From Octopus vulgaris (taxonomy: Eukaryota), in the NCBI GenBank assembly GCA_951406725.2, contig OX597831.1, positions 33,914,001 through 33,978,000 of the forward strand: 64,000 nt of DNA. The letters are read 5' to 3'. Within the stretch, counting starts at the first letter, position 1. Every line of letters begins with the position of its first letter. Shown one piece after another: positions 6,263 through 43,373 of this stretch. Made by a program: the position numbers and the translations under genes. The notes under the pieces are model-generated. The model had not been told where the DNA came from and did no database searches. It worked only from the letters and a program-made list of their open reading frames with translations.

Positions 6263-7110
6263 TAGCAGATTCGTTGGCACGATTCAGACGAAATGCTTAG
6301 CAGTATTTCGTCTGTCTTTACAAATTCCACAAAGGTCGACTTTGCTTTTATCATTTCGGGGTCGATAAATTAAGGACCAGATGCGTACTGGGTCGATCTA
6401 ATCGTCTGGTTCCCATCCCCCAAAATTTCGGGCCTTGTGCCTTGAGTAGAAAACAATCGTTGGCACGCCGGTCGAAGTGCTTAGAGGTATTTCGTCTGCC
6501 GTTACGTTCTGAGTTTATATTCCGCCGAGGTCGACTTTGCCTTTCATACTTTCGGGGTCGATAAATTAAGTACCAGTTACGCACTGGGGTCGATGTAATC
6601 GACTTAATCCGTTTGTCTGTCCTTGTTTGTCTCCTCTGTGTTTAACCCCTTGTGGTTAGTAAAGAAATAGGCATTTTGTCTGCCGTTAAGTTCTGAGTTC
6701 AAATTCCGCCGAGGTCGACTTTGCCTTTCATCCTTTCGTGGTCGATTAAATAAGTACCAGTTACGCACTGGGGTCGATATGATCGACTTAATCCGTTTGT
6801 CTGTCCTTGTTTTTCCTCTCTGTGTTTAGCCCCTTGTGGGTAGTAAAGAAATAGGTATTTCGTCTGCCGTTACGTTCTGAGTTCAAATTCGGGCCTTGTG
6901 CCTTGAGTAGAAAAGAATCGTTGGCACGCCGGACGAAATGCTTAGCGGTATTTCGTCTGCCGCTACGTTCTGAGTTCAAATTCCGCCGAGCTCGACATTG
7001 CCTTTCATCCTTTCGGAGTCGATTAAATAAGTACCAGTTACGCACTGGGGTCGATGTTATCGACTATCACCCCCCACCAAATTTCAGGTCTTGTGCCTCT
7101 AATAGAAAGG
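6263..7110 (+). mobile_element. Tandem multimer (~5 partial units) of tRNA-derived SINE family A
   Basis: Repeated ttctgagttcaaattccgccgaggtcgactttgcctttcatcctttcggggtcgataaattaagtaccag (B box gagttcaaattcc; central part resembles the Meta-SINE domain, from memory). Confidence 0.85.
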
Positions 7111-27480: not shown

Positions 27481-28100
27481 AAGGCAGCGAACTGGCGCGC
27501 ATTTTGCACGCCAGGCAAAATTCTTAGCGGTAGTTTGTCTGCCGCTACATTCTGAGTTCAAATTCCGCCGAGGTCGACTTTGCCTTTCATCCTTTCGGGG
27601 TCGATTAAATAAGTACCAGTTACGCACTGCGGTCGATATAATCGACTTAATCCGTTTGTCTGTCTTTGTTTGTCCTGTCTGTGTTTAGCCCCCTGTGGGT
27701 AGTAAAGAAACAGGAATTTCGTCTGCCGCTTCGTTCTGAGTTCAAATTCCGCCGACGTCGACTTTGCCTTTATCCTTTTGGGGTCGATAAATTAAGTACC
27801 ACTTACCGACTGGGGTCGATATAATCGACTTAATCCCTTTGTCTGTCCTTGTTTGTCCCCTCTATGTTTAGCCCCTTGTGGGCAATAAAGAAATAAGAAT
27901 CGTGGGCACGTTGAGAATAATGCTTTGTGGAATTCGATCTGTCGTCTTTACGTTCTGAGTTGAAATTCCGCCGAGGTCGACTTTGCTTTTCATCCTTTCG
28001 GAGTCGATACATTAAGTACCAGTTTCGTACTGGAGTCGATCTAATCAACTGGCTCCCTCCCCCAAAATTCTAGGGTGATGTGCCTAGAATAGAAAAGAAT
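27481..28100 (+). mobile_element. SINE family A trimer
   Basis: Three core units; the last ends in the cccccaaaatt..tgtgcctagaatagaaaagaat tail. Confidence 0.85.
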
Positions 28101-35765: not shown

Positions 35766-36408
35766 TACCTTTTATTGTAACAACACAATTAAATGCACGA
35801 TAAAAAGTTATGGAATTAAGCACCTACTACTATATACATACAACTGAATTCAGAAATTTAAAAATATATACATAACATTGAACTCAGAAAGTTATTTAAA
35901 AAAAGAAAAAAAATCTTCGACGAAAACATCAGATAATATGTGTGAGTGAATATACATATATATACATATACATATGCATGTGGTGAAGAAGAAAAGAGAA
36001 AGGAAAAAAAAAAAATAATAAATAAATAAATAAATAAACGTAAACAGGTTTGACCTTTTACTGACCATTAACGTCCTTTGTCTCCATCTACCGTGGCTAT
36101 TTATAGACCCAAAGAACATGAATTCTTTAACCACCCATTCTCCAACACAATGGAGTGCTGATGGTGGCTGTGGCTACACATAAAACAATGTCATTGAAGA
36201 TGATGATGGTGATGGTGATGTTGCTGATGATGGTGATGGTGGTGAAGATGATAGTAATAACAATAATAACTGACAGATCCCGTCTTTTTCCCTTTCTTTT
36301 CGTTTCCTTCTCCGTATTTTATTCTCATTATTTCGAACTAATACAGACACAGTAAGCCTTGAAGAAAGGAGAGGAGGAAAGGAAAAAAAAAAAAAAAAAA
36401 AAAAAAAA

Positions 36409-38724
36409 ATGTCCGGAGATAAAACTATCAACAAAAAAAATACAGACGAATATAGATCTGCTAGTCTTAAGAAGCGGCGCTATGAGCAATGCTTACACGT
36501 AGTGAACCCTAAACTGACAGATCCATCTCCTAATATAAGAATGGATGCTCGTCATGCTTCAAGGTCAACAAATCAAACAATAAACCGCATTGGTCATTGC
36601 GCGGATTACAAAAGACCACGTACCCGAAAATTGAACCAAATCCTGATTGAAAAATCAGTTACTGGATCAAATCTTCCCAACACACAGGAGCTGGACGAAC
36701 CCCACAACCGGAATATTCCAACAGATGGCCATCCATGCTCATCACCAAATAATCAAAAGAAAAAGAAGGAAAAATGGTCTAGGGAAGATAATAAAGAAGT
36801 TCTTGAGGCCTTCTACCATGCCATATATTTCCCCACAGATAAGTCTAGCACTGTACAAGCATACTTAAACTGGAGACAGAAACACCCTGAAGTAAGACCC
36901 TACATAGACAGTAACAAGCTTGCCAATGTTAGAAGAAACATTATAAAAAAGAAATTACTGACTGAAGTAGAGATTGATCAGGTTAGACAAGCAATATCGG
37001 ATAAAATGAACGAAGCTGCAGCTAGAGAAGATAATACAGAGGAAATGATTATAGACCAGCCCAGGGCGGATAAAAACGAAGAGAGGATTGAAAGAGTTAG
37101 TATAAGGGATAGGCAAAGTGAAATACGCCCTGAACCAATCATAAACACTAAGACAGATGAGCATCAAATAGATAAAGAAAGTCACACAAATATTGACCCA
37201 ACAGAACTACATGAGCTAAAAAATCAAATCATGATTGAATGGCTGAAAATTAAAGAAACCAGCATGGATGAGCGTGATACACTTCCTAAAATCCGCAACT
37301 CTAACCAAAACATGAAAATAATTGGTAAAATCCGGCTTGCACTTAAGGATATAATTTCAGTTAATGATGTTGATATCACAAACCTCAACCACCTATACTA
37401 TGCATCCGCGAAAATCTCAACGATCCTATGTGGTGTAAAGATTAGAAAACGGCAACAGTCCCACAAAAAGCCTTCTTGGCAAGAGCGTCTGCAACAACAA
37501 ATTAAAATATTTAGATCTGACATTGAATATTTGAAAAACCTTAAGGCTCACAAGATTACCAAACCTACAAAAACCCAAAAATTACTGAAAAAATACAATA
37601 TGAAAACTATACTTGATATTGATGCCACCATAGAAACCATCAAACAAAAGGTATCTGCCAAAGCTGCCCGCATAGCGAGGTATGAAAAGCGTGTTAGATT
37701 TTTCAAGGACAACAACATGTTCAAAAATAACACCAAGAATTTTTACCGGAAAATAGGAAAAACAGCGTTTACTGCAGGGTCTGTACCATCAAAAGAAGAA
37801 GTGCAGAGATTTTGGAATAAAATCTGGGCAGAAGAAAAAACACACAACGAAAAGGCCCCCTGGATTGACAGAATATCTACAGAACTGGACCCCTTAGAAG
37901 AGCAAAAGTGGGAGGGTGTCAAGGTAGAAGATATAAGATCTGCTCTCAGGAGGTCAAGCAAATGGAAGTCTCCAGGAAAGGATAAAATTCCTAACTTCTG
38001 GCTGAATGCCTTCCCAGAGAGCCATGAACTGCTAACAGAACTGTACAATGATGTTTTGCAACACCCTAGTAGGATGCCTCCTTGGCTAGTTAATGGGTTA
38101 ACATTCCTGCTTCCAAAAAGTGAAGAAACAAATGAACCAAAAAACTATAGACCCATAACCTGCTTAACAACTATGTACAAAACACTAACATCTGTCCTGA
38201 CGGAATATACCTATAGTTTTTTAACAGACAGCAGCATATTCCCTAATGAACAGAAAGGATGTAAACGTGGATCCTACGGCTGTAAAGACCAACTACTCAT
38301 CAATAAGATGATCTTAGAAGATTGTCACAAACGACACAAGAACTTATCAATAGCCTGGATAGACTATAAAAAGGCTTTTGATAGCCTACCACATAGCTGG
38401 ATTAGAAAATGCCTTGAAATGTATAAGATAGCACCAACTCTGCGAAACTTCTTGACTGTAAGTATGAGATCATGGAGAACCACACTAACTCTGAACAGTG
38501 ACAGTGAATTCCTAAATGCTGGTGATGTAAAAATTTCGTGTGGCATTTTCCAGGGTGACTCACTGTCACCACTCCTCTTTTGTTTATCCTTAATACCTCT
38601 CTCAAAGCTGCTCAATGACGCGCAGTACGGGTATAAAATGTTTGATAAAAATATAAATCATCTCGTTTACATGGATGATTTAAAGCTTTTGCAAAAAATG
38701 ATCAACAACTCAAGGGCTTACTAG
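36409..38724 (+). CDS. Retrotransposon polyprotein, N-terminal part with reverse transcriptase up to YMDD (frameshift at ~38687-38690)
   Basis: RT motifs WKSPGKDKI, PKNYRPITCL, EQKGC, WIDYKKAFDSLPH, GIFQGDSLSPLLF, YMDDLKL. N-terminal KWSREDNK..LANVRRNI resembles R4/Dong N-termini. The true start may be Met at 36541. Confidence 0.9.
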   Translation: MSGDKTINKKNTDEYRSASLKKRRYEQCLHVVNPKLTDPSPNIRMDARHASRSTNQTINRIGHCADYKRPRTRKLNQILIEKSVTGSNLPNTQELDEPHNRNIPTDGHPCSSPNNQKKKKEKWSREDNKEVLEAFYHAIYFPTDKSSTVQAYLNWRQKHPEVRPYIDSNKLANVRRNIIKKKLLTEVEIDQVRQAISDKMNEAAAREDNTEEMIIDQPRADKNEERIERVSIRDRQSEIRPEPIINTKTDEHQIDKESHTNIDPTELHELKNQIMIEWLKIKETSMDERDTLPKIRNSNQNMKIIGKIRLALKDIISVNDVDITNLNHLYYASAKISTILCGVKIRKRQQSHKKPSWQERLQQQIKIFRSDIEYLKNLKAHKITKPTKTQKLLKKYNMKTILDIDATIETIKQKVSAKAARIARYEKRVRFFKDNNMFKNNTKNFYRKIGKTAFTAGSVPSKEEVQRFWNKIWAEEKTHNEKAPWIDRISTELDPLEEQKWEGVKVEDIRSALRRSSKWKSPGKDKIPNFWLNAFPESHELLTELYNDVLQHPSRMPPWLVNGLTFLLPKSEETNEPKNYRPITCLTTMYKTLTSVLTEYTYSFLTDSSIFPNEQKGCKRGSYGCKDQLLINKMILEDCHKRHKNLSIAWIDYKKAFDSLPHSWIRKCLEMYKIAPTLRNFLTVSMRSWRTTLTLNSDSEFLNAGDVKISCGIFQGDSLSPLLFCLSLIPLSKLLNDAQYGYKMFDKNINHLVYMDDLKLLQKMINNSRAY

Positions 38725-38756
38725 CGATAGTCAAACAATTCAGTGACGACATCAGA

Positions 38757-40220
38757 ATGCAATTCGGCCTCGATAAATGTGCAAAGGCTACCTTTATCAA
38801 AGGAAAAATGACAGAAACATCTAACGTTAACCTTGACCAACAGAATGTCATAAAAGAACTAGACCCAGCGGAGAGCTACAAGTACCTAGGGATAATTGAA
38901 GGGAACGGAATAAGGCATTCAGAGATGAAGGAAAGGATCAGGAGAGAATGCTATCGAAGAGTGAGAGCAATACTCAAGACAGAGCTGAATGCAAGAAACA
39001 GGATCGAAGCAATCAATGCATTAGCTATACCAGTCGTGACTTACAGTTTCAATATTGTTAACTGGTCAATTACTGAAATATGTCAGCTCGACAGAAAAAT
39101 AAGGAAACTGTTGACAATGCATAGAATGCACCACCCTAAGGCAGATACAGAACGACTCTATCTGCCAAGAAAAGAGGGAGGCCGTGGTCTTTTGCAACTG
39201 GCAATAACAATGAAGATTGCTACAATTGGCCTAGACACCTACCTGAAAAACTCTGAGGACTGGATGCTAAAACTTGTCTCAAAACATGAAAACAAGAAAG
39301 CATCATACTCAGTCACAAAACAGGCAAAGGAATATCTAAGTGAATTCCGAATACAACCAATTTCGGAGATAGATATACAAGAAACAAGCACAGAAAAAGC
39401 TAGGCGCATGAAAACCCGTGCCAAAACTGCGGCCTTAGATATTCTGAATAATAAATGGCAAGAAAAACCTCTCTATGGCAAATACCCAAAGAGAGCGAAT
39501 AATGCAGATATCGACAAAGCCCTGACCCATCAATGGCTAATGGCCTCTGGCTTAAAATCTGAAACAGAGGGGTTTATCATAGCAGCTCAAGATCAATGCC
39601 TACCAACAAGAAACTACCAGGCCAACATATTAAAGATCAGAAGCAGTCCAACGTGTCGTGTATGCAAGCAACAAAATGAAACCATTGACCATGTGGTCTC
39701 CAAGTGCAGTCTTCTAGCGCCTACAGAGTATCTCAACAGGCACGATAGAGCTGCACAATATATTCACTGGGTAATCTGTAAAAACCTGGATTTGCCCCAT
39801 GAAAAAAACTGGTGGGAACACAAACCACCCCCAGTGCTTGAAAATGACCACATCTCACTCCTCTGGAACTTCACCATTCAAACTGACAGGAAGATAGATG
39901 CAAATAGGCCAGACATCATATTGAAAAACTTCAAACAAAGAACATGCCTCCTCATTGATATGACTGTCCCAATCGATATAAACGTATCTGTCAAGACCTA
40001 CCAAAAACTGAGCAAATATAAAGATCTTGAAATAGAAATCAGCAAAATGTGGAAGCTGAAGACTAAAACAATACCTGTTGTCATAGGTGCCCTGGGAATG
40101 ATAGCAAAAGGGGCTGATAGCTACCTAACTCAGATACCAGGAAACCCAAAAATGGCAGAAGTTCAAAAGATAGTGCTCATGGGAACTGCTCATATCCTAC
40201 GCAAAATACTCTCTATGTAA
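38757..40220 (+). CDS. Retrotransposon polyprotein, C-terminal part: RT thumb, CCHC zinc knuckle, restriction-like endonuclease
   Basis: FGLDKC, YKYLGI, LYLPRKEGGRGL, AAQDQ, CRVC..ETIDHVVSKC, RHD, RPDII..LIDMTVP..KLSKYKDL (PD-(D/E)xK type). It continues the upstream ORF in the -1 frame. Confidence 0.92.
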   Translation: MQFGLDKCAKATFIKGKMTETSNVNLDQQNVIKELDPAESYKYLGIIEGNGIRHSEMKERIRRECYRRVRAILKTELNARNRIEAINALAIPVVTYSFNIVNWSITEICQLDRKIRKLLTMHRMHHPKADTERLYLPRKEGGRGLLQLAITMKIATIGLDTYLKNSEDWMLKLVSKHENKKASYSVTKQAKEYLSEFRIQPISEIDIQETSTEKARRMKTRAKTAALDILNNKWQEKPLYGKYPKRANNADIDKALTHQWLMASGLKSETEGFIIAAQDQCLPTRNYQANILKIRSSPTCRVCKQQNETIDHVVSKCSLLAPTEYLNRHDRAAQYIHWVICKNLDLPHEKNWWEHKPPPVLENDHISLLWNFTIQTDRKIDANRPDIILKNFKQRTCLLIDMTVPIDINVSVKTYQKLSKYKDLEIEISKMWKLKTKTIPVVIGALGMIAKGADSYLTQIPGNPKMAEVQKIVLMGTAHILRKILSM

Positions 40221-40463
40221 TCTCAAGGTTTAAAACAAACATAATTTTCGGTTTAAAAAAAAAAAAAAAAAAAAACCTTTTTTTTTTCTTTTTAGACATT
40301 CATTAGTACAACATCCCCACCCCCCAAATATATGGCACACTAGGCATAACAACAACATGAACTTCCAACCCTGTTGTCTCTTGAGGTCTCTGGGTGAGAC
40401 TTGGAGCCAACTTGTACAAATATAAAGCAAAAGTCAAACATAGAATAATAATAATAATAATAA

Positions 40464-40669
40464 CAACAACTGAAGAGGTCACCCAGGCACTGCAAAGACT
40501 AAGCAACTGGAAGGCACCTGGACATGACAAGATCCCCAACTTCTGGTTGAAATATCTAACAGGAATGCACAAAAAGCTAGCTGAAAACTTTAACAACAGC
40601 ACATACCCAAGGCACACAGAGCTGCGCTCGGTAGTGAAGTGAAAGCACGCTATAAAAATAAAACTACTG
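40464..40669 (+). mobile_element. 206-bp Dong family-2 mini-unit (135 bp identical to 40852-40986 plus 71-bp 3' end)
   Basis: Direct comparison: 40464-40598 equals 40852-40986; 40599-40669 matches 43215-43285 with 2 substitutions. Flanked on both sides by (TAA)n. Confidence 0.9.
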
Positions 40670-40691
40670 AATAATAATAATAATAATAATG

Positions 40692-40731
<40 letters not shown>

Positions 40732-40790
40732 CGATAATAATAATAATAACGATAATAATAATAATGATAATAATAATAATGTTAATAATG

Positions 40791-40851
<61 letters not shown>

Positions 40852-40854
<3 letters not shown>

Positions 40855-43285
40855 CAACTGAAGAGGTCACCCAGGCACTGCAAAGACTAAGCAACTGGAA
40901 GGCACCTGGACATGACAAGATCCCCAACTTCTGGTTGAAATATCTAACAGGAATGCACAAAAAGCTAGCTGAAAACTTTAACAACATACTAGCAGAGCCA
41001 GAGACAATGGCTCACGAAGGGGAAAACCATCTTAATTCCCAAATCAAATGAGACAGCAAACCAGAAAGCTACAGACCAAAAACCTGTCTCCCTACTATGT
41101 GCAAGGCATTTACTGCAGTGATATCGCAAAGGTTGAACAAGCACCTGGACAAGAACAACCTGTTTCCAGAAGAGCAGAAAGGATGCCGCAAAGGCTCATA
41201 TGGCTGTAAAGATCAACTAATGATTAATAAAGCCATAACTGAAGACAGCCACAGAAAGAAGAAAGGCCTCAGTACGGCCTGGATCGACTACAAAAAGGCG
41301 TTTGATAGCATCCCCCACACATGGATCCTCGAAACACTAGCCATCAACAAAGTAGCACCAACAATTATAAAATTCATAGGGCACTCTATGAATAAATGGC
41401 GAACAGTGCTACAGCTCCAAACAAAAGAGAGACTCATAAAAACCAAAGCCATCCCCATTAGAAGAGGAATATCCCAGGGAGAGACGCTCTCTCCACTCCT
41501 TTACTGCTTGGCACTGACACCTCTATCTGACATGCTAAATAGAACTGGATGCGGATATAAATATTACGGCAAAACAATCAGCCACCTTTTATATATGGAT
41601 GACCTAAAACTATACGCTACAAATGATAAACAGCTGGAAACACTACTACAGGCAGTACATGGATTTACCAAACAAATAGATATGAAATTTGGATTAGAAA
41701 AATCTGCCAAAGCAACCCTGAAAAGAGGAAAAATAGTTAAGAGTTGCAACATTACACCAATGAAATAAAAGAATTAGACCAAAGCCAGACTTACAAATAT
41801 TTAGGAATCCATGAACTAGATATGATATAACACACACAAATGAAAGAGAAAATAAAGAAAGAATAATATAGACGAGTTAGATCAATAATAAAAACAGACC
41901 TCAATGCTAAAAACAAGATAATAGGTATTAACACTTTAGCAGTCCCAGTTATAAGTTGCAGTTAAAATATCCTTAACTGGACACTAAATGAACTAACCAA
42001 AATAGACAGGAAAACAAGAAAAATAATGACAGGATCTTGGATGCACCACCCAAAATCTGACATAGAAAGACTATATATACAACGTATAGAAGGTGGTAGA
42101 GGCCTTATGCAGCTGGAAAACTACTATAAAATAACCACCATAGGACGGCAAAAATATTTACTTCAGAAGGAAGGAAAACTGATACAAATAGCGGCAAAAC
42201 ACGAGCAAAACAAAAAACTGTTCTCAGTATTTTAGGAAGCTGACAAATACAAACAATAAATCATACCACCTAATAAATATGAAGAAGAAGAAGAAGAAGA
42301 AGAAGAAGAAGAAGAAGAAGAAGAAGAAGAAGAAGAAGAAGAAGAAGAAGAAACAACAAAAGCTATAAAACAAAGGAAATCCAAACTAAAAATAGAACAG
42401 CAACGAACCATGATAAAACGATGGCAAGAAAAGCCCCTTCATGGTAAATACTGGACTAATCTAAACGCAAAAGAAATAGACAAAGAAAAATCCCAGCAAT
42501 GGTTGAGAAGCTCAGGACTCAAAGCAGAGACAGAGGGATTTTTAATTGCAGCACAAGACCAAAGCCTCTCCACCAGAAATTACCAAAAACATGTAATGAA
42601 AAGAAATATAACAAGTAGCTGCAGAATATGTGGAGATGGACAAGAAACAATAAATCATATTATCTCTGGCTGCCCAGTCCTGGCTAAGAAGGAATATATT
42701 CACAGACATGACAGAGTTGGAACCTACATACACTGGAAGCTATGCCAACATTATGGAATAACAACAAAAAAAAGATGGTATAGGCACACACCAGAAAAGG
42801 TCATAGAAAACGAGAAAGCAACCATACTCTGGGATATGCCGATACACACAGATAGAGAAATTAAGGCCAACAGACCAGATATAGTTGTCAGAGATCATGA
42901 AGAAAAAAATGCTTTCTGATTGATGTATCAATACCGGCAGATGACAACGTTTCTCTAAAAGAAATGGAGAAACTTTCGAAATACAAAGACCTGGAAATAG
43001 AGGTAACCAGAATGTGGAATCTAAAAACAGAAACAATTCCTATCATAGTTGGTGCATTAGGCATGATAAAAAAATATTCAGACAAATACATAACAAAAAC
43101 ACCAGGACTTACAAACACGTATAACATACAGAAAATTGCACTAGTAGGCACTGCCCACATCCTACGCAGAACACTTTCCATACAATAACCATCAGAGCAT
43201 CACAACAAATCACAGCACATACCTAAGGCACACATAGCTGCGCTCGGTAGTGAAGTGAAAGCACGCTATAAAAATAAAACTACTG
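40852..43285 (+). pseudogene. 5'-truncated, decayed R4/Dong-clade retrotransposon (family 2)
   Basis: ORF pieces 41097-41768 (EQKGC, WIDYKKAFDS, YMDD), 42026-42235, 42410-42919 (CRIC..HIISGC, RHD, RPDIV) and 42964-43188 (KYKDLEIE). Several stops and frameshifts, a (GAA)n expansion at 42281-42352, a different 3' UTR from family 1, and (TAA)n on both sides. Confidence 0.92.
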
Positions 43286-43297
43286 AATAATAATAAC

Positions 43298-43373
<76 letters not shown>

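Follow-up and report, generated by a model that had tools for sequence, protein, structure and literature searches.

A retrotransposon stub between two copies of its target DNA in Octopus vulgaris suggests rare, variable junction repair rather than a programmed long offset

The stretch of DNA analysed here, called the window, comprises 64 kb of the Octopus vulgaris genome, and all positions given below without further label are positions within it. A near-intact member of one RLE-type LINE family, element A, occupies 36274..40443 on the plus strand (its 5' limit is approximate), with a coding region that a single frameshift near 38700 splits into frames of 816 aa and 513 aa, and a 3' UTR that ends at 40443. 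The C-terminal half of element A is 50% identical to the protein of a second family, referred to here as family B, which supplies the downstream sequences discussed below. Within the 3' UTR of element A, poly(A) and poly(T) runs face each other at ~40255-40293. Elsewhere in the window, tandem pairs of a 183-184-bp repeat unit lie at 6485-6890 and 27537-27900.

The features that follow element A are all on the plus strand. A left TAA tract of six pure AAT units (40444..40461) leads into X1 (40462..40598), a 137-bp copy of the 5' end of an older, resident family-B element. The last three nucleotides of X1, ACA (40596..40598), are common to X and to the family sequence just 5' of the adjoining 71-mer. 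This 71-mer (40599..40669), which we call the stub, is the probable new insertion; it consists of the last 71 nt of the 97-nt family-B 3' UTR and is identical to the family majority. A middle TAA tract of 180 bp (40670..40849), in which the first seven units are pure and nine interruptions occur, comprises the new tail and probably the old target tract. It is followed by X2 (40850..40986), the 5' end that the resident had originally, which codes for an N-terminal region of the RT. The resident itself (40850..43285) is decayed and 5'-truncated; its start corresponds roughly to position 1560 in a full-length copy of 3,967 bp. Its own 3' end (43215..43285) has T at 43224, a subfamily variant, and T at 43235, which is near-private, and continues into the resident's TAA tail (43286..43372). 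A (GAA)24 expansion lies within the resident's ORF at 42281-42352, where the intact protein has a short Glu run.

The original prediction described two identical 135-bp copies of X separated by a 71-bp element end with two mismatches to that of the resident. Sequence comparison extends the identity to 155 nt (40444-40598 versus 40832-40986), so that the 135 bp fall inside it; without the AAT run the identical block is 137 bp (40462-40598, its first three units being AAC), and its non-repeat core is 128 bp. The two differences are exactly 40608/43224 and 40619/43235, and the 'aca' microhomology proposed for the junction is likewise seen, as 3 nt, against the family majority. With up to one mismatch allowed, the junction 25-mer is unique in the 2.8-Gb genome, and a separate non-autonomous family made of a recurring 206-bp unit (X plus the 71-mer), which the prediction had named as a refuting alternative, is thus rejected. 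The structure at 40444-40986 is real: target DNA has truly been duplicated, probably by a new insertion.

The genome compared (2.8 Gb, 227 contigs) holds at least 5,662 exact matches to the family-B 3' end, and copies diverge from the family majority by a median of 1.7% (148 copies). One copy, L082, retains a single intact frame of 1,227 aa with an RVT_1 domain (E=1.5e-31); residues 452-1208 of this protein align to R2 structures (E=1.8e-35), including a CCHC knuckle and the PD..D..K endonuclease region, and no Pfam family of APE endonucleases was detected in it at E up to 1. Judged by its sequence, family B has the features expected of RLE (R2-group) elements, namely a single RT ORF with a predicted C-terminal knuckle and PD-(D/E)xK motif, without APE. 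The fold predicted for its 3' UTR is no better than those of shuffled sequences (z=-1.2). The 5' junction lies directly at a TAA-type tract in 234 of 292 scorable copies. Dong is an R4-clade RLE element. In a review, Dong elements are said to target TAA repeats and are grouped with APE-type elements (PMC3812793), and another paper reports recent activity of Dong-R4 in Octopus vulgaris (PMC13282606). The TAA target fits Dong, and we treat family B as a putative Dong, an assignment set by target and architecture. The two are alike in their TAA target, single-ORF RT-RLE architecture, youth and abundance.

Several other features of this family were encountered. Full-length copies (L087, L079, L090, L139, L308, L316, L323, L326) often have a 5' end made of tandem repeats of the first 20-30 nt, and in L087 these amount to 244 nt, as if the 5' end had been recopied over and over. 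At C3:166,172,474-166,174,329 (L011-L020, L023, L025), 13 family 3' ends of 69-78 bp stand head to tail, each with a TAA tail; this array is the amplification of one stub, one variant base being common to all units. In L427, on the minus strand upstream of anchor 1528, AAT runs take the place of patches of the 3' region, with family words still in register, a pattern attributable to slippage, conversion or an assembly consensus artefact. Furthermore, a common non-coding repeat of ~560 bp uses TAA tracts that are also used by family B, often on both sides (L122, L210, L389, L423 and many flanks).

The source of X1 can be read from its sequence. It carries the resident's 5' truncation point, at which no other scorable copy is truncated, as well as the resident's extra AAC at the junction and both of its minority variants, each of which is found in 4 of 57 copies and the two together in none. 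Because the resident's 5' junction and two minority variants are all present in X1, we conclude that X1 was copied from local DNA. The resident differs from the family majority at 91 of 2,385 sites, 55 of them private (2.3%), and had the duplication happened as early as the resident's own insertion, the probability of zero differences between X1 and X2 in 135 bp would be 0.002. The identity of X1 and X2 despite the resident's private divergence therefore indicates that the duplication is recent.

The stub has a different history. The family majority that it matches is common (72 of 156 copies are identical to it), and comparison with the family consensus, which had been proposed as a check, finds majority alleles at both sites where the resident differs. 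At the first site, C in the stub corresponds to T43224 in the resident; this T is a variant that is present in 42 of 325 copies, is linked to four other variants present in the resident, and is enriched among the resident's nearest relatives (6/15 versus 17/181, p=0.003). At the second site the stub has G where the resident has T43235, seen in 1 of 326 copies. Because the stub has family-majority alleles that are absent from the resident, it most likely came from another donor, as far as these alleles can tell; against this reading, C is found in 9 of the 15 nearest relatives, which leaves T43224 in only 40% of them. The asymmetry of the tracts (six pure AAT units on the left versus 180 bp with nine interruptions in the middle) was considered as a dating tool and set aside as weak, because young tails too are often interrupted.

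The original prediction went further and invoked a second cut far from the first, similar to that proposed for rotifer R9. If this were a trait of the family, long duplications should recur at other copies, and comparing duplication lengths across copies had been put forward as a check. Copies were taken from lists of 3'-end and X matches, which gave 365 ends, 337 of them unique; removing 45 whose junction or flank extended past the limits of the locus left 292 scorable. Loci of the C3 array and the window's own duplicates had been excluded beforehand, and two of the 292 are the window's. Junctions were counted as informative when unique flank starts within 135 nt of the element's end, so that an offset of 135 bp could be seen; of the other 290, 230 qualify. 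Most of the sample comes from C1-C5, and long copies are enriched in it, 42 of the 290 being from stretches fetched mostly for carrying X.

None of the 230 informative junctions has a duplication of 135 bp or more (95% upper bound 1.3%), and among the 290 copies there are no duplications longer than 50 bp and one of ~47 bp (L228); the blast test missed L228, and the exact-word test (150 nt either side) that was added as a result would overlook duplications that are old, diverged or much longer, flanks being limited to ~1.5 kb. Other direct duplications measure 17, ~47 and 73 bp, and an R9-like offset is rejected as a family trait. What stands of the original prediction is that a severely 5'-truncated new copy from another donor, with priming in the TAA tract, was inserted and downstream target DNA duplicated; its far-offset second cut, as a property of the element, is not supported.

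A number of apparent long duplications were examined and discarded. The 667-bp match at L122 joins two independent copies, 93% alike, of a common TAA-targeting repeat, and the 267-bp match at L210 has an end that is not at the junction. At L079, L080, L083, L063, L101, L162, L196, L317, L326, L352 and similar loci, the match is to the element itself, in nested or tandem copies. L383 is a plain tandem duplication of 397 bp that mimics a 170-bp TSD; rare variants are common to both of its element copies.

A search aimed at short stubs covered 100 of 199 matches, plus 13 and 10 matches from further searches and 12 and 8 chosen stretches. Among the matches listed, at least 21 distinct stubs do not lie directly at a tract, and by hand these were classified as three direct duplications, five fold-backs, six within-element jumps or repeats and seven joins to unrelated upstream DNA. 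First, L228 (the same locus as L374) has a 47-nt stub and ~47 bp of downstream flank duplicated directly. In its left copy, an 11-mer of the element's 3' UTR replaces one base (chance 1.6e-4), and because of this spliced-in 11-mer we conclude that the left copy was newly synthesised, with template switching between target and element. Second, L389 has a 63-nt stub and a 73-bp direct duplication with six differences between copies; the two agree in a base that is otherwise seen in 1 of 29 further copies of the repeat to which they belong. Third, L423 has a 71-nt stub and a 17-bp direct duplication plus 4 re-primed. Two of these other direct duplications show re-priming that is impossible for an intact staggered top strand, a finding that goes against a far-offset second cut as a property of the element.

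With the window included, the direct cases have stubs of 47, 63, 71 and 71 nt, all ending within the 97-nt 3' UTR; three of the four came to light under selection for short stubs. In the survey, which was not selected for structure, direct duplication is found in 1 of 16 short copies versus 0 of 274 longer ones (p=0.055). Among junctions not at a tract the figures are 3/21 versus 0/43 (p=0.03), these being classified by hand, with the short set drawn from the stub-aimed search among the matches listed. The link between direct duplications and short stubs is weak.

Locally templated pieces are not confined to stubs. L096 and L118 are longer copies with local pieces outside TSD geometry: L096 carries a 95-bp piece from 1.6 kb upstream, the only local match above 77%, and L118 has a fold-back together with 36 bp inverted from downstream DNA, a unique pair. 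Among the five fold-backs at stubs, that of L394 inverts ~300 bp of downstream DNA. In addition, L425 and L426 are head-to-head, two-armed stubs with a TAA tail on each arm and different flanks, which would arise by a full fold-back or by priming on both strands.

On balance, and with modest confidence, we favour the hypothesis that the stub between two target copies was left by a cDNA that aborted early and whose end copied neighbouring DNA, in a rare and variable form of junction repair that involves no programmed offset. Where the cDNA stopped, and that X1 is of local origin, can be read from the locus, and we infer the remaining steps. As expected from established TPRT, the element would have nicked the TAA tract in front of the older resident copy and copied the RNA of another donor. 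The cDNA ended at 71 nt, within the 97-nt 3' UTR. By analogy with R2, 3' UTR RNA that was still bound may have kept the usual second nick near the first from being made. The 3' end of the cDNA could then have paired, by way of ACA, with the top strand 137 bp beyond the tract, and either the element's RT or a host polymerase could have carried synthesis leftwards across X as far as the AAT repeats, after which repeat-to-repeat joining and fill-in would have fixed the duplication. The evidence for template switching comes from the other loci, and the microhomology at the window is only 3 nt.

The strongest competing explanation, which we consider possible yet clearly less probable, is an accidental stagger. 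Here too the second strand would not have been nicked by the element, the cDNA instead being end-joined at a chance single-strand break of host origin 137-155 bp downstream, such that X1 would be the original top strand. The product at the window locus would be the same under both readings, and the geometry is exactly that of a TSD with a 3-nt microhomology. R2 crippled in second-strand nicking gives large duplications, and the authors of that study speculate that host breaks are used (PMC13486585). However, an accidental stagger leaves unexplained the spliced left copy of L228, the re-primed copy of L423, and the inverted and distant local copies. It also predicts, as a weaker point, that the left copy should retain the whole old tract, when it has six AAT units only.

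An improbable alternative dispenses with new retrotransposition altogether: the whole resident copy would have been duplicated in tandem via the flanking TAA tracts and then reduced by a 2.2-kb deletion between ACA microhomologies, as the original prediction had allowed. Tandem duplications via TAA tracts do occur, as in the 13-unit C3 array and in L344, where three tandem copies all have one junction and one private variant; L383 demonstrates that a plain tandem duplication is able to mimic a long TSD; and internally deleted copies are common, with jumps of more than 150 nt in 11 other copies among the 290. Nevertheless, this route needs two rare events, after which both later changes would have to fall within the last 71 bp of the resident while X1, X2 and the stub all stayed unchanged, and T43224 was probably inherited, so that a back-mutation would be needed as well.

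We regard an assembly artefact at this microsatellite-rich repeat as very improbable. X1 is identical to X2, and no read or contig from six runs bridges the junction in data that are thin (two runs sampled at ~3 in 100) or repeat-collapsed, where absence proves nothing; against an artefact, the stub alleles differ from the local copy, and similar structures elsewhere have diverged copies, as at L389. Least probable of all is that the element's endonuclease is programmed to make its second cut at a distant offset. The nearness of the duplication's length to R9's 126 bp is outweighed by the lack of such an offset at every informative junction and by the 234 junctions directly at a TAA tract, and the rarity and variable lengths of such duplications within the family make a built-in long staggered cut unlikely; it is refuted as a family trait, and a rare protein variant might possibly have acted in this way.

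Gladyshev and Arkhipova reportedly described a 126-bp TSD for rotifer R9 in 2009, a length also given where R9 is cited in PMC9977147 and PMC13486585. R9 resembles the window case in being an RLE LINE with a similar duplication length, and differs in that its duplication is described as a trait of the element, whereas in family B it is absent from nearly all copies. In Chlamydomonas, according to one study, Dualen-4b has duplications of more than 50 bp at more than half of its insertions, with a median of 900 bp (PMC9977147). These long, variable duplications flanking a LINE are like that at the window; Dualen-4b, however, carries APE plus RLE, whereas no APE domain was found in family B and about 1 in 290 of its copies has such a duplication.

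There are also parallels with R2. In one report, avian R2 crippled for second-strand nicking gives ~1-kb target duplications with 'downstream join' junctions in PRINT, and recruiting the second nick is said to require protein domains that cDNA synthesis has released from RNA (PMC13486585). The locus described here shows the geometry of a 'downstream join', a class defined by a 5' junction more than 5 bp past the first nick, whether or not microhomology is used: its 5' junction lies 137-155 bp downstream, at ACA. Both are RLE LINEs with variable target-site duplication and a join-type 5' junction, although the R2 cases are engineered mutants in human cells, at rDNA and of ~1 kb, whereas those of octopus family B are natural and inherited, span 17-137 bp, and lie at microsatellites with stubs ending within the 3' UTR. 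In R2 PRINT 'snap-back', as outlined in another paper, cDNA 3' ends prime on cDNA or on nearby target DNA before joining (PMC11371274). Similar events in family B are L118, L168, L174, L370, L394 and L411; 'snap-back' is defined by opposite-strand sequence, whereas the window case is copied in direct orientation. Also described are truncated R2 junctions with microhomology and variability in the top-strand cuts of R1 (PMC2718515). Given Dualen and R2 lacking the second nick, long flanking duplications are no longer special to R9 (PMC9977147, PMC13486585). Our literature search, mostly of openly accessible papers, found no account of long TSDs or junction anatomy for Dong or octopus RLE elements.

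These findings bear on how the 5' junction of non-LTR elements is completed, and on whether this takes a second nick by the element itself, a question for which large samples of target sites are said to have been lacking (PMC13486585). The window locus offers no evidence for a new long-offset cut; it is probably a rare junction-repair outcome of a known kind, and a warning that a lone long 'TSD' is not to be taken as a cleavage offset. We tentatively put forward a broader proposal, which we hold to be possible but less likely than not, that the family keeps a natural germ-line record of a checkpoint: when the cDNA stops within the 3' UTR, the second nick would not be licensed, and the polymerase would shuttle from element RNA to downstream target DNA and back, so that direct and inverted duplications of variable length arise with no second cut at all. 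With its at least 5,662 copies, family B makes it possible to ask directly whether only insertions ending within the 3' UTR carry duplications. If the proposal is true, a checkpoint hitherto known from engineered R2 would have its natural record in family B.
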